Below are positions 6,528 through 62,387 of a stretch of DNA of 64,000 nt, one piece after another. The stretch spans positions 14,498 to 78,497 of the forward strand of contig DASXNK010000194.1 of the NCBI GenBank assembly GCA_036495095.1. The letters are read 5' to 3'. The notes below the pieces were generated by a model. That model saw nothing but the letters and a program-made list of their open reading frames with translations, ran no database searches and had not been told where the DNA came from. The stretch's first letter is position 1. Every line of letters starts with the position of its first letter. Source of the stretch: Candidatus Dormiibacterota bacterium (GTDB taxonomy: Bacteria > Chloroflexota > Dormibacteria > Aeolococcales > Aeolococcaceae). The translations under genes were made by a program, and so were the position numbers.

Positions 6528-7451
6528 CTATGGGGCGCCCAGCAGCTGCCGCAGCGCAGGCTCGAGGTCCGGATACCGGACGGCATAGCCGAGACCGAGC
6601 AGGCGCCCGGCCGACACCCGCTGCCCGGTGGTGACCATCGACGCCATCTCGCCGTAGAGGAGGCGCAGCGCCAGCGCGGGGACGGGCGTCACCGCGGGAC
6701 GGCGGAGCACGGCGCCCAGGGTTCTCGACAGCTCGGCGTTGGTGACCGGGGTGGGCGCGACCACGTTGACCGGTCCCGCCGCCCCGGCATCGTCGACGCA
6801 GTGCAGGAGCGCGCCGGCGACGTCGTCGAGGTGCACCCAGCTGACCCACTGGCGCCCGCCGGCGACCGGCCCTCCGGCGCCGAGACGGAAGGGCGGGAGC
6901 ATCTTGGCGAGCGCCCCGCCCTCCGGCGAGAGCACCACCCCGGTGCGCGCGACGACCACCCGCAGGCCCGAGGCATCGGCCGCCGCGAGGGCCTCGCGCT
7001 CCCAGGCGACGACCACTCCGGCGAGGAAGTCGGCGCCCGCCGGCGACCGCTCGTCGAGCCATTCGTCGCCGTGAGGGCCGTAGAAGCCGGTCGCCGACTG
7101 CGACACCAGCGTCCGCGGCCTCCGATCCTCCGGCAGCCCGGCGATGGCGGCGACCAGCGAACGGGTGGAGAGCACCCGGGAGTCGGAGATCTCGCGCCTG
7201 GCGCTCTCGGTCCAGCGCTGCGCCACCGGCTCGCCGAGCAGGTGGACGACGGCGTCCGCGCCGGCGAGCGCGGCCTCGGGCGGCGGGGCCGACGCCGGGC
7301 GGGGCCACGCGTGGAGCTCCACGCCCGAGAGCCCTCGGTGGGCACGGTCTGGGTCCCGGGTCAGGGCCACGACCTCGTCGCCGCGGCGCTGCAGGGCGGC
7401 GGCCACCGCGGTGCCGATCGTCCCGGTGGCTCCGGTGAGCACCACGCGCAT
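6528..7451 (-). CDS. TIGR01777/YfcH family NAD-dependent epimerase-dehydratase-like oxidoreductase (with DUF1731 C-terminus)
   Basis: 'MRVVLTGATGTIGTAVAAAL' Rossmann motif; 307 aa; overall YfcH-like pattern. Confidence 0.6.
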   Translation of the reverse strand: MRVVLTGATGTIGTAVAAALQRRGDEVVALTRDPDRAHRGLSGVELHAWPRPASAPPPEAALAGADAVVHLLGEPVAQRWTESARREISDSRVLSTRSLVAAIAGLPEDRRPRTLVSQSATGFYGPHGDEWLDERSPAGADFLAGVVVAWEREALAAADASGLRVVVARTGVVLSPEGGALAKMLPPFRLGAGGPVAGGRQWVSWVHLDDVAGALLHCVDDAGAAGPVNVVAPTPVTNAELSRTLGAVLRRPAVTPVPALALRLLYGEMASMVTTGQRVSAGRLLGLGYAVRYPDLEPALRQLLGAP

Positions 7452-54065: not shown

Positions 54066-56567
54066 TCAGGAAGCCGCCCGCTTCGCCTGCACCCGGCGCA
54101 CGCCCGGGCCGGTGGTCTGCGACGGCCGCTCCCGGTCGATCGACTGCCAGGCGATCAGCAGGGTGCTGGCGTTGAAGATCGAGCTGAACGTCCCGGTCAC
54201 GATGCCGATGAGCAGTGCGAGCACGAACCCGCGGATCGTCGAGCCGCCGAAGAGCACCAGCGCGAAGAGCACGAAGGCGACGGTGAGCGCGGTGTTCAGC
54301 GAGCGGGTCATGGTCTGCACCGTGGACAGGTTCACGATCTGGTCGAAGGTGAGCCGGGGGCCGCTGCGCAGGTTCTCGCGGATGCGGTCGAAGACCACGA
54401 TGGTGTCGTGGATGGAGAACGAGACCGAGGTGAGGATGGCGGTGACGAAGAGGGTGTCGACCTCGGCGACGGTGCTGAAGTGCCCGAGGATCGCCCAGAT
54501 GCCGGCGAGCACGAACACGTCGTGGAGCAGCTTGAACAGGGTGGCGACGCTGAACCGCCAGCGCGAGATCGTCTGGGTGCGGAAGCGGACCGCGAGGTAG
54601 ACGGAGATCAGCACCGACGAGAGGACGACGAGCAGGATCGCCTTGCGCACCAGGTCGGTGGCGATGGTCGGGCCCACCGTCTGGGTCTGGACGATCGGGG
54701 CGCCCTTCGAGTCCTTGACGTAGCCGAAGTCCTTGCCCAGCTTGTCGACGATCAGCTGCTCCTGCTCGAGCGACGTCGGCAGGGTGCGGATCGAGAAGCG
54801 GTTGCCCGACTCCGACTGGATGCTGGGCTGCAGGGTGGAGGCCACGCTGGTCACCGACTTCTCCACCTGGGCCTGGGTGGCGGGGGTCGCCAGGGTGGCG
54901 TCGATGCGGTTGCCGCCGGCGAAGTCGAGGCCGAGGCGGAATCCCCAGAAGAGGATCGCCAGGATGCCGGGGACGATGATCACCAGCGAGCCGAGGAAGT
55001 ACCAGTTCCGGGTCTTGACGATGTCGAAGCGGCCCTTCGGCGGCGACGCCTCGTACTCCTCGTGGATCTCGGTGTACAGCTTGGGATTGCGCGCCCGGCG
55101 CCAGCTGAGCACGCCGACGAAGAGCGACTGGGTGATGAGGATGGCGCTGAACATCGACACCGCCACGCCGAGCCCGAGGGTGAGCGCGAATCCCTTCACC
55201 ACGTCGGTGCCGAAGATCCACAGCACCACGCAGGCGATCATCGTGGAGATGTTGCTGTCGCGGATCGCCGGCCAGGCGCGGCGGAAGCCCGCCTCGACGG
55301 CGAGAGGCGCGCTGCGCCCGTGGCGCAGCTCGTCACGTGTTCGTTCGAAGATGAGCACAATGGCGTCGACCGCCATGCCCACGCTGAGCACGAAGCCCGC
55401 CAGGCCGGCCAGGGTCACGGTGACCGGGATCAGCTTGTAGAGGGCGAGGACGATCGCCGCATAGCAGAGCAGGGCGACGCTGGCGAGCAGGCCGGGGAAG
55501 CGGTAGTACCCGACCATGAACAGCACCACGATCACCAGCCCCACGAGGCCGGCGATCAGGCTCTTGCGGACCGTGTCCTGGCCGAGGGTGGCGCTCACCT
55601 CGTTGGCCTGGACGGTGGCGATCTCGGCGGGGAGGGCGCCGGCGGTGATCGAGCTGGCCAGCCGGGTGGCTCCGTCGGCGGTGAAGTTGCCGGTGATCTC
55701 GGTGGTGTTGCTCGAGGGTGAGCGGACGCTGGGTGCGCTGATGATGGAGTCGTCCAGGAAGATCGCGATCCGGTTGGGCGGGGTGTCCTGGGTCGCCGCG
55801 AAGGCCTGGTTCGTGATCCGCGACCACTCGGCGGCGCCATGACCGTTGAAGGTGATGTCGACGGCGTACTGGTTCGACTGGGTGCTGAACCCCGCGTCGG
55901 CCTTGGAGACGTCGGTGGCGAGGATGTTGTCGTCGATCTTCCAGTGGTAGCCCGGCGGATACAGGCTGGTGTCCCCGAGCTGTTTGAGGTCGTAGTGCCG
56001 CTCCTGATCGCGGATGAACGCCGGATCGGCCGGGTTGGCCGGCCCCGGCACCGACGTGGCGAAATGGAGGCGCGCGGTGGTGCCGATGACCTCCTGCGCC
56101 TTGGCGAGGTCGACGCCGGGGATCTGGACCAGGATCTGGTCGCTGCCCTGCGCCTGCACGCTCGCCTCGGCGACACCGAGGCTGTTCACGCGCTGGCTGA
56201 GGACGGTGATGGTGGCGTTCTGCACGTCGCCGAGGTTGGCGCCCTTCGGCGGACCGTTCCGGCAGCTCGTCCCCGGCGGATCGTTGAACCCCTTGCAGAT
56301 GGCGATGGTCAGCTCGGTGCCACCGCTGAGGTCCAGACCCTTGTGGATGAAGACGGGGAGGCCGCCGATGTGGGGGTCGCTGCTGAGCGTGGCGCCCAGC
56401 GGCTTGCGCTCCACGAGGAAGCGGTAGGTGTACCCATAGGTGTCGATGAACAGGGCGGCGAGGATGATGAACAGGACCCCGCCCATCATCCAGCGGTTGA
56501 GGCGGATCACGGCCGGGGAGTGTAGCGGAGGCCGGCGGGTCGAGGACTGCCGGCCCCGCGCCGGCAT
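54066..56567 (-). CDS. secDF: fused protein translocase subunit SecDF
   Basis: SecD periplasmic domain, TM bundle, then SecF-like second half ('FDIVKTRNWYFLGSLVIIVPG...') in one frame. Start ATG 56567 or ATGATG 56489. Confidence 0.85.
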   Translation of the reverse strand: MPARGRQSSTRRPPLHSPAVIRLNRWMMGGVLFIILAALFIDTYGYTYRFLVERKPLGATLSSDPHIGGLPVFIHKGLDLSGGTELTIAICKGFNDPPGTSCRNGPPKGANLGDVQNATITVLSQRVNSLGVAEASVQAQGSDQILVQIPGVDLAKAQEVIGTTARLHFATSVPGPANPADPAFIRDQERHYDLKQLGDTSLYPPGYHWKIDDNILATDVSKADAGFSTQSNQYAVDITFNGHGAAEWSRITNQAFAATQDTPPNRIAIFLDDSIISAPSVRSPSSNTTEITGNFTADGATRLASSITAGALPAEIATVQANEVSATLGQDTVRKSLIAGLVGLVIVVLFMVGYYRFPGLLASVALLCYAAIVLALYKLIPVTVTLAGLAGFVLSVGMAVDAIVLIFERTRDELRHGRSAPLAVEAGFRRAWPAIRDSNISTMIACVVLWIFGTDVVKGFALTLGLGVAVSMFSAILITQSLFVGVLSWRRARNPKLYTEIHEEYEASPPKGRFDIVKTRNWYFLGSLVIIVPGILAILFWGFRLGLDFAGGNRIDATLATPATQAQVEKSVTSVASTLQPSIQSESGNRFSIRTLPTSLEQEQLIVDKLGKDFGYVKDSKGAPIVQTQTVGPTIATDLVRKAILLVVLSSVLISVYLAVRFRTQTISRWRFSVATLFKLLHDVFVLAGIWAILGHFSTVAEVDTLFVTAILTSVSFSIHDTIVVFDRIRENLRSGPRLTFDQIVNLSTVQTMTRSLNTALTVAFVLFALVLFGGSTIRGFVLALLIGIVTGTFSSIFNASTLLIAWQSIDRERPSQTTGPGVRRVQAKRAAS

Positions 56568-56574
56568 CGGCCGG

Positions 56575-56982
56575 TCAGTTGCAGATCGGGTCGTGGAAGC
56601 GATCCTTCCAGGTCCACGGGCCCTCGGTGCCTCCCTTGCCGCCGATGTACGACGCCCGATAGGTGCGGTTCCGGGCGTCGCGGTAGCTCCAGCCGTAGAT
56701 GTACAGCCAGTCCTCATAGGACCCCGACGGGTTGCTGCGGAAGTTCACACAGGCGGGGTCGCAGCACGCCTGGCCCAGGTCGATCACACCTCGGTCCTCG
56801 AAATGGGTGCATGGACCAGGGATGTTCTGCCACGGGCAGTCCGGGCATGGTGCCGGTGCCTGGGCGCCGGGCGGACAGTCGCTCCGGGCGGCGCGGGCCA
56901 TCTCGGACCCCACCGCGAGGCTGGCGGCGACCGCGAATGTGGCGCTGGCGAGCACCCGGGCCGCCGTCTGCAGAGCTCTCAC
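56575..56982 (-). CDS. secreted cysteine-rich hypothetical protein (8 Cys)
   Basis: Signal peptide 'MRALQTAARVLASATFAVAASLAVG'. 'CPPGAQAPAPCPDCPW...CTHF...CCDPAC...PICN'. No family assignment. Confidence 0.45.
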   Translation of the reverse strand: MRALQTAARVLASATFAVAASLAVGSEMARAARSDCPPGAQAPAPCPDCPWQNIPGPCTHFEDRGVIDLGQACCDPACVNFRSNPSGSYEDWLYIYGWSYRDARNRTYRASYIGGKGGTEGPWTWKDRFHDPICN

Positions 56983-57120
56983 GGGGACGTTCCTCCCAGC
57001 GGGATCCGGCGGATGCCGGTTCCCTTGGACATTCCTCGATGAGACGACCGACCGGACGGAAAACCTACGCGGAAACCGCGACTTGAATGACCCACACGCG
57101 CCAGACGAGGCGAGGCGTTC

Positions 57121-58302
57121 CTACTCCGGACCGGTGCCGCAGACCACCGCGGCGCTCCGCCTCGCCTCGGCCACCGCCGCTGCCTCGGAGTCGATCCCCC
57201 CGGCCAGCCCGGCCAGCACCACCCTCCGGTACTCGGCGAGGCGCCCCCCGGCGATCGCGGCCCGGGCACCCTCCATCAGCAGGCCGAGGTGGGTGAGGTT
57301 GTGGAGCGAGAGCAGCCGGTGGGCGAGGATCTCGCCCGCGGCGAAGAGGTGGCGGAGGTAGGCCCGGCTGAACCCCCCGGCGCAGGCCGGGCAGGGGCAG
57401 CCCTCCTCGAGCGGGCGGAGGTCGTCGCGGTGGGCGGAGCGGCGCAGCGGCAGCCGGCCGCCGCAGGTGAGCGCGGTGCCGTTCCGGGCCAGCCGGGTGG
57501 GGAGCACGCAGTCGAACATGTCGACGCCGGCGGCGACCATGGCGAGGAGCTCGGCGTCGGTCCCGAGCCCCATCACGTAGCGGGGCAGTTCCTCGGGGAG
57601 CCGCTCCAGCGCCGCCGCCGCCATCGCCTCCATCACCGGCGGGGGCTCGCCGAGGGCGAGGCCGCCGATGGCGACGCCGTCGAAGTCGAGACCGGCGATC
57701 AGCTCCGCCGAGCGCCGCCGCGCCGCCGGGTCGAACCCGCCCTGGACGATGCCGAAGAGGAGGTGACGGTCGCGGCCGGGATGGGCGCGGCGGCAGCGCT
57801 CCGCCCAGCGGTGGGTGCGGGCGGTGGCCTCGGCGGCGGCCGCCTCGGGGGCCCCGTAGGCGACCGGGTGGTCGAGGCACATGATCACGTCGGCGCCGAG
57901 CCGGGCCTGGAGCGCGACCGCGTCCTCGGGGGTCACCCGGAGCCGGCTGCCGTCGTAGGGGGAGACGAAGGTCGCGCCGTCGTCGTCCAGCGACGCCACC
58001 CCCTCGAGGCTGACCAGCTGGTAGCCGCCGCTGTCGGTGAGGATCGGTCCGTCCCAGCGCATCAGCTCCTGCAGCCCGCCGAGCCGCTCGACCAGCTCGA
58101 CGCCGGGGCGCAGGGCCAGGTGGTAGGCGTTGCAGAGCAGGATGTCGGCCCCGCAGGCGCGCACCTCGGCGGGATGGACCGCCTTGACCGCGGCGTGGGT
58201 GCCCACCGGCATGAAGGCGGGCAGCCGCACCTCGCCGTGGGCGGTGCGCAGCATGCCGGTGCGGGCGGCGCCGTCGCGGCCGGTGATGGTGAGCGCGCTC
58301 AT
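57121..58302 (-). CDS. tgt: queuine tRNA-ribosyltransferase
   Basis: 'LPAFMPVGTHAAVKAV', 'LTDSGGYQ', Zn site 'CPCPACAG...H'. ATG 58302 overlaps the queA stop. Confidence 0.9.
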   Translation of the reverse strand: MSALTITGRDGAARTGMLRTAHGEVRLPAFMPVGTHAAVKAVHPAEVRACGADILLCNAYHLALRPGVELVERLGGLQELMRWDGPILTDSGGYQLVSLEGVASLDDDGATFVSPYDGSRLRVTPEDAVALQARLGADVIMCLDHPVAYGAPEAAAAEATARTHRWAERCRRAHPGRDRHLLFGIVQGGFDPAARRRSAELIAGLDFDGVAIGGLALGEPPPVMEAMAAAALERLPEELPRYVMGLGTDAELLAMVAAGVDMFDCVLPTRLARNGTALTCGGRLPLRRSAHRDDLRPLEEGCPCPACAGGFSRAYLRHLFAAGEILAHRLLSLHNLTHLGLLMEGARAAIAGGRLAEYRRVVLAGLAGGIDSEAAAVAEARRSAAVVCGTGPE

Positions 58303-59375
58303 GGGCCCGGGCTGCGCCAGCAGAGCATGCAGTCGCCGAACGAGAGGAAGCGGTAGCCGGCGCCGAGGGCGTGATCGTAGGCGGCGCGCCACCGCTCGGT
58401 GCCGATCAGCGCGGCGAGGAGCACCAGCAGGCTGGAGCGCGGCTGGTGGAAGTTGGTGAGCAGCCCGTCGACCACCCGCACCGGCACCCCCGGGCGCAGG
58501 TAGAGGCGGGTCGTCCCCTCCCCCGCCTCGACGGTGCCGTCGTCGTGGGCGCGGCTCTCCAGCACCCGGACCGCGGTGGTGCCGACGGCGATCACCCTGC
58601 CGCCGCGAGCCCGGGCGGCGGCGACCGCGGCGGCCGCGGCGGCGGGCAGCGCGTAGCGCTCCTCGTGCATGGGGTGCTCGTCGACCCGCTCGTGGCGGAT
58701 CGGCGCGAAGGTGGCCAGCCCGACCTCGAGCCGCACCTGGGTGCGCTCGACCCCGGCGGCGTCGAGGGCGGCGAGCACCGCCGGGGTGAAGTGGAGGCCG
58801 GCGGTGGGCGCCGCCGCCGAGGCCGGGCCGCCCGCGGCGTAGACGGTCTGGTAGCGGCCGGGATCGTCGAGGGTGGCGCGGATGTAGGGCGGCAGCGGCA
58901 CCCGGCCGGCCGCCTCGATGGCCGCGTCGACGTCGCCCCCGGCGGCCTCGAGCCGCACCGAGCGCGCCCCGGGGTGACCCGGCACCCGGCCGCCCATCAC
59001 CGCCTCCAGCCGCGGCCGGATGGTCAGCCGGGTGCCCTCCGGGAGCCGCCGGGCGGGACGGACGAGGCACGCGTACCCCCCCTCCGCGAGGGGATGGAGC
59101 ACGAGCAGCTCGGCGGCGCCGCCCCCGGGCCGCCGGGCGGCCAGCCGGGCGGCGCGCACCCGGGTGTCGTTGACCACCAGCAGGTCGCCGCGGCGGAGCA
59201 GGGCGGGCAGCTCGCGGAAGCCGCGATCCTCGGGAGGGCCCTGGAGCGGGAGGTGGAGCAGCCGGGAGGCATCGCGTTCGGCGAGCGGCCGCTGGGCGAT
59301 GCGCTCCGGCGCCAGCGGGTAGTCGAAGGCGGCGGTGGCCGTCTCCGCCGCGGTCCCGGCCGCGTCCGTGCTCAG
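58299..59375 (-). CDS. queA: S-adenosylmethionine:tRNA ribosyltransferase-isomerase; the conserved N-terminus lies upstream of the first ATG/GTG, so the start is non-canonical
   Basis: In-frame '[27 protein letters not shown]...[10 protein letters not shown]' matches the QueA N-terminus but precedes the track start (GTG 59177). No ATG/GTG/TTG upstream. Candidate CTG overlaps the ruvB stop. Confidence 0.6.
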
Positions 59376-60418
59376 AGCAGCTCCGGCTGCACCGCGACGG
59401 CGCCGGGCGCCCCGGGGGGCACGGGCAGGCCGAGGTGGCGGTAGGCGCCGGCGGTGGCCAGCCGCCCGGAGGGGGTACGGGCGATGTAGCCGAGGCGGAT
59501 GAGGTAGGGCTCGACCACGTCCTCGACGGTGTCGCTGTCCTCCTGGACGCTGACGGCGAGGGTCTGCAGCCCCACCGGCCGGCCCGAGTAGGCGCCACAG
59601 AGCACCCCGAGCACCCGACGGTCCATCTCGTCGAGACCGCCCGCGTCGACCCCGAGCACGCGCAGCGCCCGCTCGGCGACGGCGGCGTCGATGTGGCCCG
59701 CGGCGCGCACCTGAGCGTAGTCGCGGGCCCGGCGCAGCAGCCGGTTGGCGATCCGCGGGGTGCCCCGGGCGCGAGCCGCGAGAAGGAGTGCGCCGTCGCC
59801 GTCGATCTCGATCCCGAGCAGCCCGGCGGAGCGGCGGATGATCGCGCAGAGCTCGGCGACCTCGTAGAAGTCGAGCCGGATGGTGATGCCGAAGCGGTCG
59901 CGGAGGGGGCCTCCGAGCGCCCCCGCCCGGGTGGTGGCCCCGACCACGGTGAACCGCTGCAGGCTGAGGCGCATCGCCTGGGCGCCGGCGCCCTTGCCCG
60001 CCACCCAGTCGAAGGCGAAGTCCTCCATCGCCGGGTACAGGGCCTCCTCGACGGTGCGACTGAGGCGGTGGATCTCGTCGACGAAGAAGACGTCGTTGGC
60101 CTCCAGGTTGGTGAGGATCGACGCCAGGGTGCCCTGGTGCTCGATCGCCGGCCCGCTGGTGGTGCGCAGCCGCACCCCCATCTCGGCCGCGATGATCTGG
60201 GCGAGGGTGGTCTTGCCCAGCCCCGGAGGGCCGTGGAGGAGCACGTGGTCGAGCGCCTCCCCCCTCCCCCGCGCCGCCTCGAGGAGGATGCCGAGCTGCT
60301 CGCGTACCGCCGGCTGGCCGACGAAGTCGGCGATCCGCCTGGGGCGGAGCGCGGACTCCTCGGCGCGATCCTCCTCCACCTCGGCCGGAGCTACCACCCG
60401 GGGGTCGGGATCGGTCAC
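59372..60418 (-). CDS. ruvB: Holliday junction branch migration helicase RuvB
   Basis: '[12 protein letters not shown]', '[14 protein letters not shown]', 'DEIHRL'. GTG 60418 overlaps the ruvA stop. Confidence 0.9.
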
Positions 60419-61029
60419 GTCGGCACCCGGTCGAGGCGGCGCAGGGCGGCGGCGACCAGGGCGCCGACGGCGACCTCGGTGCCGCTCTCGGCCACCCCCG
60501 CGGCCACCGCGGCGCGGGCCTCGGGCTCGCGGAAGCCGAGCGCCACCAGGCCCTCGACCGCCGCCGCCACGGTGCGCTGCTCGGGAGCGGTGGCGGTGGC
60601 GTCGCCGGGCAGGGCCATGTCGTCGAGCCGGTCGCGGAGCTCGAGCACGATCCGCTCGGCGGTCTTGCGACCGATCCCCGGCACGGTGGCGAGGAGGGCG
60701 ACGTCGCCGCTGCGCAGCGCCCGCACCAGGGTGGGCAGGTCGGCGCGGCCGAGGATGCCGAGCGCCGCCTTGGGCCCGATCCGCTCCACGCCGAGGAGCA
60801 GCCGGAACAGCCGCAGCTCGGCGGCGCCGAGGAAGCCGTAGAGGCGGATGGCGTCGGCGCTCACCGAGGTGTGGATGTGGAGGGTGACCGGCACCTCGCC
60901 CACCGACCACTCGTGGAGGGCGGCGACGGTGCGCAGGTGGCAGCCCACCTCGTAGCCGACCCCGCCGGTGTCGATGATCGCGGTCGAGCCGTCGAGCGCG
61001 GCGACCCGGCCGCTGAGCAGCGCGATCAT
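60415..61029 (-). CDS. ruvA: Holliday junction DNA helicase RuvA
   Basis: 'MIALLSGRV...GGVGYEV', '[13 protein letters not shown]'; 204 aa. Confidence 0.9.
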
Positions 61030-61613
61030 TTTCGGGGGGCCTCCCCCCACCCCCCCGGCGCCGCCCCCGCCCGGGCCACGGCGGCGGCGAGACCGGCGGT
61101 CATCCCCGCCCCGGTCACCGCCGGCGCCCGAGCGGCGCCGGAGAGCCGGGCGCGGTGGTGGTGGCAGACCGCCACCGCGCAGGCGTCGGCGACGTCGTCG
61201 GGGCCCTCGACGGCGGCACCGCCGAGCAGGGTGCGCACCATCCGGGCCACCTGCGGCTTCGGCGCCGCCCCCCAGCCGGCCACCGCCTCCTTGACCTGCA
61301 GCGGGGTGTACTCGGCGACCGCGAGGCCGGCGCGGGCGAGCCCGCAGAGGATCACCCCCCGCGCCTCGCCGACCCGCATCGCGGTGCGGCGGTTGGTCGA
61401 GAAGAAGAGCTGCTCGACCGCGGCCGCCTCGGGGCGCTCCCGGGCGATCAGCAGCTCGAGAGCGCCGAGCAGGAGGGCGAGCCGGTCGGGGTCGGGGGTG
61501 CCCGCGGGGGTCTCGATGCACCCGGCGTGGCGGAGGCGGAGCCGGCCCGGCGAGCCCTCGACCACGGCGACGCCGGTGCGGGCCAGGCCGGGGTCCACCC
61601 CCAGCACGATCAT
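61026..61613 (-). CDS. ruvC: crossover junction endodeoxyribonuclease RuvC
   Basis: '[19 protein letters not shown]', catalytic D/E residues. Confidence 0.9.
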
Positions 61614-61628
61614 CTCGGAGCGGTCACC

Positions 61629-62387
61629 TCAGCCAACCGACTCGAGGACCTCGTCGGGGATCTCCACGTTGGCGTAGACCTGCTGGACGTCGTCGTGCTC
61701 CTCGAGCGAGTCGAGCAGCCGCAGCACCGCCGGCGCCTGCTTGGCGTCGACCGCCACCGAGGTGCTCGGGGCCATCGTGACCTCGGCGTTCTCGATGGTG
61801 TAGCCACGGTCCTCGAGGGTGCGGCGGACCTCCTCGAAGCGGGTCGGCGCGACCGTGACCTGGACCGAGCCGCCGTCGACGGCGACGTCGCCCTCCTCAC
61901 CCACGTCGACGGCGTCGAGCACCTCGAGGGCGAGCTCCTCGGGGTCGGCCGCGCCGGCGTCGAGGCGGAGCACGCCCTCCTGGCGGAACATCCAGGCGAC
62001 GGTGTTGCTCTCTCCCAGCGACCCGCCGGAGCGGGTGAACATGTTCCGCAGCGCCGCCACGGTGCGATTGCGGTTGTCGGTGAGCACATCGACCATGACC
62101 GCCACGCCGTGGGGCCCGTAGCCCTCGTAGCGGATGTCCTCGAGCTGGGCGCCCTCCTTGCCACCGACGCCGCGCTGGATGGCGCGCTCGATGTTGTCGG
62201 CGGGCATGTTCACCTCACGCGCCTTCTGGATGGCGAGGCGGAGCCGGAAGTTGCCGTCGACGTCGTTGCCGCCCTCACGGACCGCGACGGTGATCTCGCG
62301 GGCGACCTTGGTGAAGACCTGTCCGCGCTTGGCGTCGACGATCGCCTTCTTGTGCTTGATCCCCGCCCATTTGCTGTGACCGGACAT
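61629..62387 (-). CDS. yebC: YebC/PmpR family DNA-binding transcriptional regulator
   Basis: 'MSGHSKWAGIKHKKAIVDAKRGQVFTKVAREITVAVREGG'. Confidence 0.9.
   Translation of the reverse strand: MSGHSKWAGIKHKKAIVDAKRGQVFTKVAREITVAVREGGNDVDGNFRLRLAIQKAREVNMPADNIERAIQRGVGGKEGAQLEDIRYEGYGPHGVAVMVDVLTDNRNRTVAALRNMFTRSGGSLGESNTVAWMFRQEGVLRLDAGAADPEELALEVLDAVDVGEEGDVAVDGGSVQVTVAPTRFEEVRRTLEDRGYTIENAEVTMAPSTSVAVDAKQAPAVLRLLDSLEEHDDVQQVYANVEIPDEVLESVG

Follow-up and report, generated by a model that had tools for sequence, protein, structure and literature searches.

Loss of the canonical queA start codon in an uncultured soil Dormibacterota lineage and a candidate CTG start overlapping the ruvB stop codon

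Results

The conserved QueA N-terminus is encoded upstream of every canonical start codon

The window analysed here, a 64,000-nucleotide (nt) stretch of contig DASXNK010000194.1 (assembly GCA_036495095.1) from an uncultured soil Dormibacterota bacterium, has a G+C content of 74% and carries the gene queA between ruvB and tgt, in a region coded on the minus strand (Table 1). Read directly on that strand, the 3' end of ruvB is ...CAG CCG GAG CTG CTC TGA, with the TGA at 59374-59372. One base upstream of this stop codon, in the frame of queA, lies a CTG (59375-59373), giving a CTGA overlap. A preliminary description of the locus, made from its sequence, had stated that queA contains no ATG, GTG or TTG before the GTG at 59177 and that the conserved N-terminus of QueA lies upstream of this codon. 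The minus-strand reading confirmed the first statement: upstream of GTG 59177 the queA frame holds no ATG, GTG or TTG and stays open to beyond 59699. The open reading frame (ORF) from this GTG, which encodes the first V of LLVVNDTRV, extends over 58299..59177 (292 amino acids), and the conserved N-terminus starts at 59327, upstream of every canonical start in the frame. Two ACG near-cognate codons (59369-59367 and 59342-59340) are also in frame upstream of the FDY motif. Because ruvB ends in Leu(CTC)-TGA, the mere presence of the CTG is no statistical claim.

The protein translated from the CTG matched Pfam PF02547 (Queuosine_synth) over residues 15-351 (positions 2-321 of the 322 in the profile, E-value 2.8e-106) and aligned with the solved QueA structures 1wdi, 1vky and 1yy3 from residue 15 or 16 to 351 (E-values 1e-75 to 1e-79). 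This 358-residue form passed the cut-offs of both NCBIfam equivalogs, NF001140 (365.4, cut-off 324) and TIGR00113 (285.4, cut-off 267.45), spanning positions 3-343 and 4-343 of these QueA models in alignments that start at residue 14. The 292-residue form lacks profile positions 1-57 and scored below both cut-offs (305.2 and 247.2). The second statement of the preliminary description was thus borne out as well, with Pfam, the solved structures and NCBIfam all aligning from residue 14-16. Directly 3' of queA, with an ATGA overlap, lies tgt, the gene for the preceding step of the pathway. By family cut-offs, structural homology and this neighbour, the gene is predicted to encode QueA, tRNA preQ1(34) S-adenosylmethionine ribosyltransferase-isomerase.

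A CTG start of queA is already in the public record. The best database match, the NCBI protein HEY2705871.1 (P0001; 358 amino acids), is annotated from the CTG and is identical to the translation of the window except for the M (M-STDAAG) at the CTG codon. For the near-identical contig L082, the JGI annotation has a 292-residue protein, P0128, that begins at the internal GTG. The NCBIfam scores account for the choice between the NCBI and JGI starts, since the longer form passes and the shorter one fails both cut-offs. No ortholog starting at the internal GTG was listed other than the gene-caller predictions on the two contigs without a canonical start (L082 and L083). Orthologs that begin there, which the preliminary description had named as an observation that would speak against its proposal, were not found; the orthologs start upstream, and the shortened form fails the equivalog cut-offs, so GTG 59177 was rejected as the true start. 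A second shorter protein, P0011 (336 amino acids, from VDERIAQ), was likewise set aside as a gene-caller choice, its twin L002 having an upstream GTG.

Table 1. Features at the ruvB-queA-tgt locus, in positions of the window
Feature	Position	Strand	Description and basis
queA as annotated by NCBI	58299..59375	-	358 codons + stop, CTG start; translation, Pfam, NCBIfam
ruvB	59372..60418	-	348 codons + stop; GTG start within GTGA overlap with ruvA
ruvB stop codon TGA	59372..59374	-	direct reading; JGI gene call on near-identical contig L082
tgt	57121..58302	-	393 codons + stop; PF01702; start overlaps queA stop as ATGA (58299-58302)
In-frame CTG, candidate near-cognate start	59373..59375	-	CTGA overlap with ruvB stop
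GCG codon at ancestral queA start position	59361..59363	-	T-to-C at 59362; junction alignment
8-nt stretch from ruvB stop to ancestral start	59364..59371	-	sequence variable, length fixed across clade
Shine-Dalgarno-like GGAG within ruvB Pro-Glu codons	59381..59384	-	5 nt upstream of CTG, 17 nt upstream of lost start
First codons F-D-Y of conserved QueA N-terminal motif	59319..59327	-	translation; Pfam, structure and NCBIfam alignments
First canonical in-frame start GTG	59175..59177	-	choice of JGI gene caller; 292-residue shortened product

Relatives have a canonical start codon at the position of a GCG in the window

The sources of ruvB-queA junction DNA were species-representative genomes, contigs from metagenomes and contigs that encode close homologues. 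The closest clade comprised 12 junction sequences from 10 lineages, whose QueA proteins are 80-91% identical to that of the window. In all 12, the junction reads ...GAGCTGCT (GAGCTCCT in L002), CTGA, 8 nt and then the codon at the start position; the pattern common to the ten lineages can also be written as CCGGAGCTGCT-CTGA, 8 nt and the start-position codon. The bases before the junction are CAGCCG in all clade sequences except L087 (CAGGCC). The start-position codon is GTG in L001, L084, L085, L002, L086 and L087, ATG in L003, L037 and L088, and GCG in the window, L082 and L083.

Over the interval bounded by the ruvB stop and the FDY motif, the window, L001, L083, L088 and L003 align without gaps. 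Such an alignment of orthologs, which the preliminary description had proposed as a check, gave the ancestral start position: nine orthologs have ATG or GTG, at identical spacing, where the window has GCG (59363-59361). Among the explanations offered in that description, a point mutation in the start codon is what the orthologs show, and a hidden indel is excluded by the base-for-base alignment. The comparison indicates that the ancestral GTG was lost by a T-to-C change at 59362 (GTG to GCG) without an indel, and we consider it very likely that this loss is real. As a mutation, a single substitution in a start codon is an ordinary kind of event.

The 8-nt gap between the ruvB stop and the start position occurs as nine different sequences in the 10 lineages, with its length unchanged, and this length keeps the CTG in frame with the canonical start. 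For a neutral stretch of 8 nt, as a rough guess, about one indel or fewer would be expected over the tree of such a small clade, and we do not count the invariant gap as evidence that the CTG frame is read.

In more distant Dormibacterota, ruvB and queA themselves overlap, as GTGA in L048, L049 and L051 and as TTGA in L045, which makes the overlap an ordinary place for a queA start in this phylum. In the 2501 region of L006 and L041, queA also starts in a GTGA overlap (GTGAGCACG...); there the upstream gene ends in LCGILRVP, unlike RuvB, and the gene preceding queA may differ from ruvB. A separate observation concerns L003:1447-2453 (VBHE01000207.1, from the metagenome-assembled genome CF_96), in which ruvB is split near residue 170: by tblastn, residues 1-169 lie in frame 1 and residues 173-348 in frame 3. 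Since the near-identical contigs L037 and L038 are intact, this split is a frameshift or an assembly error.

The start codon appears to have been lost twice

The same GCG was found on two other contigs. One, L082 (JGI metagenome 3300036845, Ga0376677_0000141, 45 kb), matches the window at 6876 of 6879 positions over 55299-62177 (99.96%). The three single-nucleotide polymorphisms (SNPs) in these 6.9 kb lie elsewhere in the operon; judged by the flanking codons, two are synonymous and one is nonsynonymous. Because of these differences, L082 is not a copy but a consensus of its own, derived from a strain or sample that differs slightly.

The other, L083 (JGI 3300086672, Ga0683756_0030047, 3.3 kb; junction at 1095-1133), belongs to a different lineage. 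It has GCG at the queA start position and no other canonical start, and it has kept the CTGA; the JGI call on its queA is a shortened protein of 291 amino acids, P0122. The core of its QueA is 96% identical to P0123, P0125 and P0130, 95% to L001 and 90% to the window. In a neighbour-joining tree, L083 is nested in a group whose other members all have ATG or GTG, so two independent GTG-to-GCG changes are a more parsimonious reading than a single loss with several later regains. The possibility that L083 acquired its GCG allele by recombination was rejected, its junction flanks (CTGAGCACGACC ... GCCGGCGTC) resembling those of L088 and L001 and not those of the window. This recurrence is the only mildly surprising element of the locus, and it may hint that CUG is tolerated at NTGA reinitiation sites.

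queA retains the marks of purifying selection

In both lineages without a canonical start (the window and L083), the 358-codon frame is intact, with no frameshifts or stops. The ratio of nonsynonymous to synonymous substitution rates (dN/dS) of queA was 0.26-0.31 in pairwise comparisons involving the window and 0.21-0.32 in those among the other sequences; ruvA, ruvB and tgt (0.08-0.24) are more constrained than queA. With L002 and L003 as outgroups, changes were assigned to single branches, which gave synonymous/nonsynonymous counts of 24/15 for the window, 15/3 for L083 and 11/1 for L001. If nonsynonymous sites outnumber synonymous ones by about 2.4 to 1, which is our own rough estimate, dN/dS comes to about 0.26 on the window branch, equal to the family average and far from neutral. 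The intact frame and these ratios argue against a long-standing decay of queA, with low power if the loss is recent.

Stop-start overlaps are the commonest close junctions in the window

The preliminary description had also noted that neighbouring junctions in the operon are ATGA or GTGA overlaps, and we found the same: ATGA at ruvC/ruvA, GTGA at ruvA/ruvB and ATGA at queA/tgt. About 17 closely spaced same-strand junctions of the window were surveyed roughly, with gene ends picked by hand. Canonical NTGA stop-start overlaps accounted for eight (two ATGA, five GTGA and one TTGA) and were the commonest arrangement, an indication that this genome relies heavily on translational coupling. The ruvB/queA junction was the only surveyed one lacking a canonical start in the interval from -60 to +150 nt relative to the upstream stop. 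The idea that the genome habitually uses CTG starts was rejected; the two other CTGA contexts in the window have an ATG at +2 or +5. At all 18 junctions printed in the survey, the upstream stop is TGA.

A ruvB-coupled re-initiation at CTG could sustain translation of queA

In the orthologs of the clade, the ATG or GTG located 8 nt after the ruvB stop lacks a convincing Shine-Dalgarno sequence of its own; it is 17 nt from the conserved GGAG. In the clade, queA probably depends for its translation on ribosomes that come from ruvB. Termination-reinitiation at overlapping genes is an established process; it needs an overlap or a very short distance, and coupling falls off sharply as the distance grows (PMC10666635). 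If the CTG is taken to be the start, the window has this 4-nt overlap geometry (CTGA), compared with a gap of +8 nt in the orthologs. The CTG is in frame and has the context expected of a near-cognate start, i.e. the GGAG at 59384-59381, a spacing of 5 nt and the overlap with a stop codon.

We propose that QueA is still made, at a reduced level, from this CTG, which lies 12 bases upstream of the lost start. A ribosome finishing ruvB would sit on the CTG, whose TG also belongs to the stop codon, and with the GGAG located 5 nt upstream it could re-initiate there, in the manner of ribosomes at the many ATGA, GTGA and TTGA overlaps of this genome. The product would be a QueA of 358 amino acids, with four N-terminal residues more than its orthologs. 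In Escherichia coli, where initiation has been measured for all codons, CUG is one of four near-cognate codons with measurable activity, at about 1-2% of AUG (bioRxiv 10.1101/063800). We put the probability that queA continues to be expressed from the CTG, at a low level and coupled to ruvB, at roughly 0.55. Of the earlier proposal of non-canonical initiation at the CTG, the part that stands is that this codon offers the most plausible route of expression and is annotated as the start by NCBI; the CTG is not the ancestral start, and initiation there is a prediction.

Several points weigh against translation from the CTG. The overlap CTG was found in all 12 clade junctions, conserved because ruvB ends in CTC TGA, and the GGAG is conserved because the RuvB protein ends in QPELL; both are read as by-products of this ruvB ending, present in all relatives, and not as evidence of selection. 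Neither start-less lineage has acquired the synonymous CTC-to-CTG change in ruvB that would give a strong GTGA start, and the CTG is not the conserved start, the orthologs using ATG or GTG 12 nt downstream. In E. coli, initiation at CUG amounts to no more than 0.02-3% of that at AUG, the value varying between constructs (bioRxiv 10.1101/063800). In Mycobacterium tuberculosis, another high-GC organism, CUG starts are rare, and an AUG-to-CUG change has been used to knock out a Shine-Dalgarno-led upstream ORF, with expression severely reduced (PMC11260477). Furthermore, dN/dS cannot date the loss: a gene that died very recently would also look intact and constrained. At 74% GC, open frames persist by chance, and an open frame alone is weak evidence.

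A stronger version of the proposal, which we regard as doubtful, is that CUG in CUGA is re-initiated efficiently enough to make the downstream GTG or ATG of queA dispensable in the clade. A dispensable downstream start would explain why the same loss occurred twice, why both genes are under purifying selection and why the in-frame 8-nt gap is invariant. The clade would then offer a natural example, from an uncultured phylum, of termination-coupled translation that initiates at CUG.

Other explanations of the missing start

The alternative that survives best, possible in our judgment without being probable, is a freshly silenced queA. In this reading, queA has gone untranslated since the GTG-to-GCG change, the queuosine pathway ends at preQ1-tRNA, and no further damage has accumulated yet. 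No canonical start is left in the frame, CUG initiates very poorly in E. coli, work on M. tuberculosis treats it as a non-start, and neither start-less lineage has made a compensatory change to a canonical start. The same loss occurring twice in a small clade is what would be expected of a dispensable gene; to our knowledge, QueA is not essential in the bacteria studied so far, and repeated null alleles are conceivable. The allele may also be young, the window and L082 differing by only three SNPs in 6.9 kb. However, dN/dS is not relaxed relative to the orthologs on either the window branch (about 0.26; 24/15) or the L083 branch (15/3), neither lineage has frameshifts or stops, and the protein scores above the equivalog cut-offs. 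A further point in favour of continued translation is that tgt, which starts within the ATGA shared with the queA stop, lacks an evident Shine-Dalgarno sequence, so its expression would probably drop as well if queA were untranslated.

Much less probable is the use of another start codon, either one of the two in-frame ACGs or the internal GTG at 59177. The ACGs do lie upstream of the FDY motif, and the JGI calls P0128 and P0122 use an internal start; yet no ACG has a well-spaced Shine-Dalgarno sequence or overlaps a stop codon, and the 292-residue form, lacking profile positions 1-57, would be without the most conserved N-terminal motif in addition to failing both cut-offs.

Slightly less credible still is the notion that the population really has GTG and that the C at 59362 arose in assembly or consensus building or belongs to a minor strain. 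The window does come from a metagenome-assembled genome. However, an assembly error is unlikely because a second, separately assembled sequence, L082, carries the same base while differing at three other sites; the same codon is present in the different lineage L083, and the 90%-identity protein cluster, which has 13 members, contains no window-type sequence that has a canonical start.

A RuvB-QueA fusion produced by -1 ribosomal frameshifting at the ruvB stop can be dismissed. The queA frame, at -1 relative to that of ruvB, does remain open across the 3' end of ruvB, but long open alternative frames are expected at 74% GC; no slippery heptamer (X XXY YYZ) is present at the site, G CTG CTC TGA, and orthologs in which ruvB ends in the same way start queA at an ATG or GTG of its own.

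Further observations on QueA proteins and the window

A variable loop of QueA is encoded at about 59010-59050 of the window (residues ~109-122); proteins of the L001 type read SCGGGLEAVVGG in this loop, and P0002 and P0007 have an insertion of about 19 residues (TIRPLTRPLAGGLPPAAPLCGGG...) in it. The QueA encoded by L088:401-1543 (P0125; also P0123 and P0130) has 380 amino acids, with a C-terminal extension of about 26 residues (...GTGGRLSSTKETMAWGSPPNIQRVSVERRE), and queA of this sub-lineage still ends in a 4-nt overlap with the tgt call. Between tgt and secDF, in the usual place of yajC, the window contains an ORF of 70 amino acids called by JGI (56575-56787, minus strand), for which Pfam gave no match even at E<=1. 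RNA folding at the ruvB-queA junction was not unusual (z-score 0.47), and a scan of the whole window with Rfam returned no RNA element.

Discussion

The main value of these results lies in annotation. Two public pipelines differ on queA at this locus, JGI calling 292 amino acids and NCBI a CTG-started protein of 358, and the comparative data explain the difference. They also illustrate that the loss of a start codon can leave a fallback, in the form of a near-cognate codon in the stop-start overlap, and the second, independent loss, in a sister lineage, provides a small natural experiment on the tolerance of CUG at NTGA reinitiation sites. If such tolerance were confirmed, gene finders for uncultured high-GC organisms could reasonably accept starts in CTGA overlaps where homology demands them. 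Knowledge of QueA and of queuosine biology is unaffected by the finding.

The relatives examined at this junction (L001-L003, L084-L088, L045, L048, L049 and L051) have the same gene order, yebC-ruvC-ruvA-ruvB-queA-tgt. Those of the closest clade share with the window the ruvB ending CCGGAGCTGCTCTGA and the 8-nt gap, and the distant ones start queA in a 4-nt overlap with the ruvB stop, GTGA or TTGA. All of these relatives have a canonical ATG, GTG or TTG, whereas the window (with L082) and L083 have GCG and only the CTG at the overlap.

Pseudogenes that arise by start loss are recognized by the loss together with relaxed selection or further lesions. Here, as in such genes, one substitution has removed the sole canonical start; unlike them, queA carries no second lesion and shows no measurable relaxation.

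Near-cognate start codons in bacteria include CUG, AUU, AUC and AUA, with infC and pcnB of E. coli, which start with AUU, as examples. The queA of the window resembles these cases in that its conserved N-terminus precedes the canonical starts and that an in-frame near-cognate codon with a well-spaced GGAG, annotated as the start by NCBI, is available. In contrast, the established near-cognate starts are conserved, regulatory and experimentally proven, whereas the CTG of the window is a by-product of the upstream gene, and the orthologs start at a different, canonical codon.

A parallel in architecture is termination-reinitiation at NUGA overlaps (Huber et al., PMC10666635; for M. tuberculosis, PMC11260477). 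As in those systems, the genes are same-strand neighbours, and the candidate start would overlap the upstream stop in the NTGA manner, an arrangement that is frequent in the window (eight canonical cases) and is used at the same junction in relatives. The known cases have AUG, GUG or UUG in the overlap; the candidate start in the window is a CUG.

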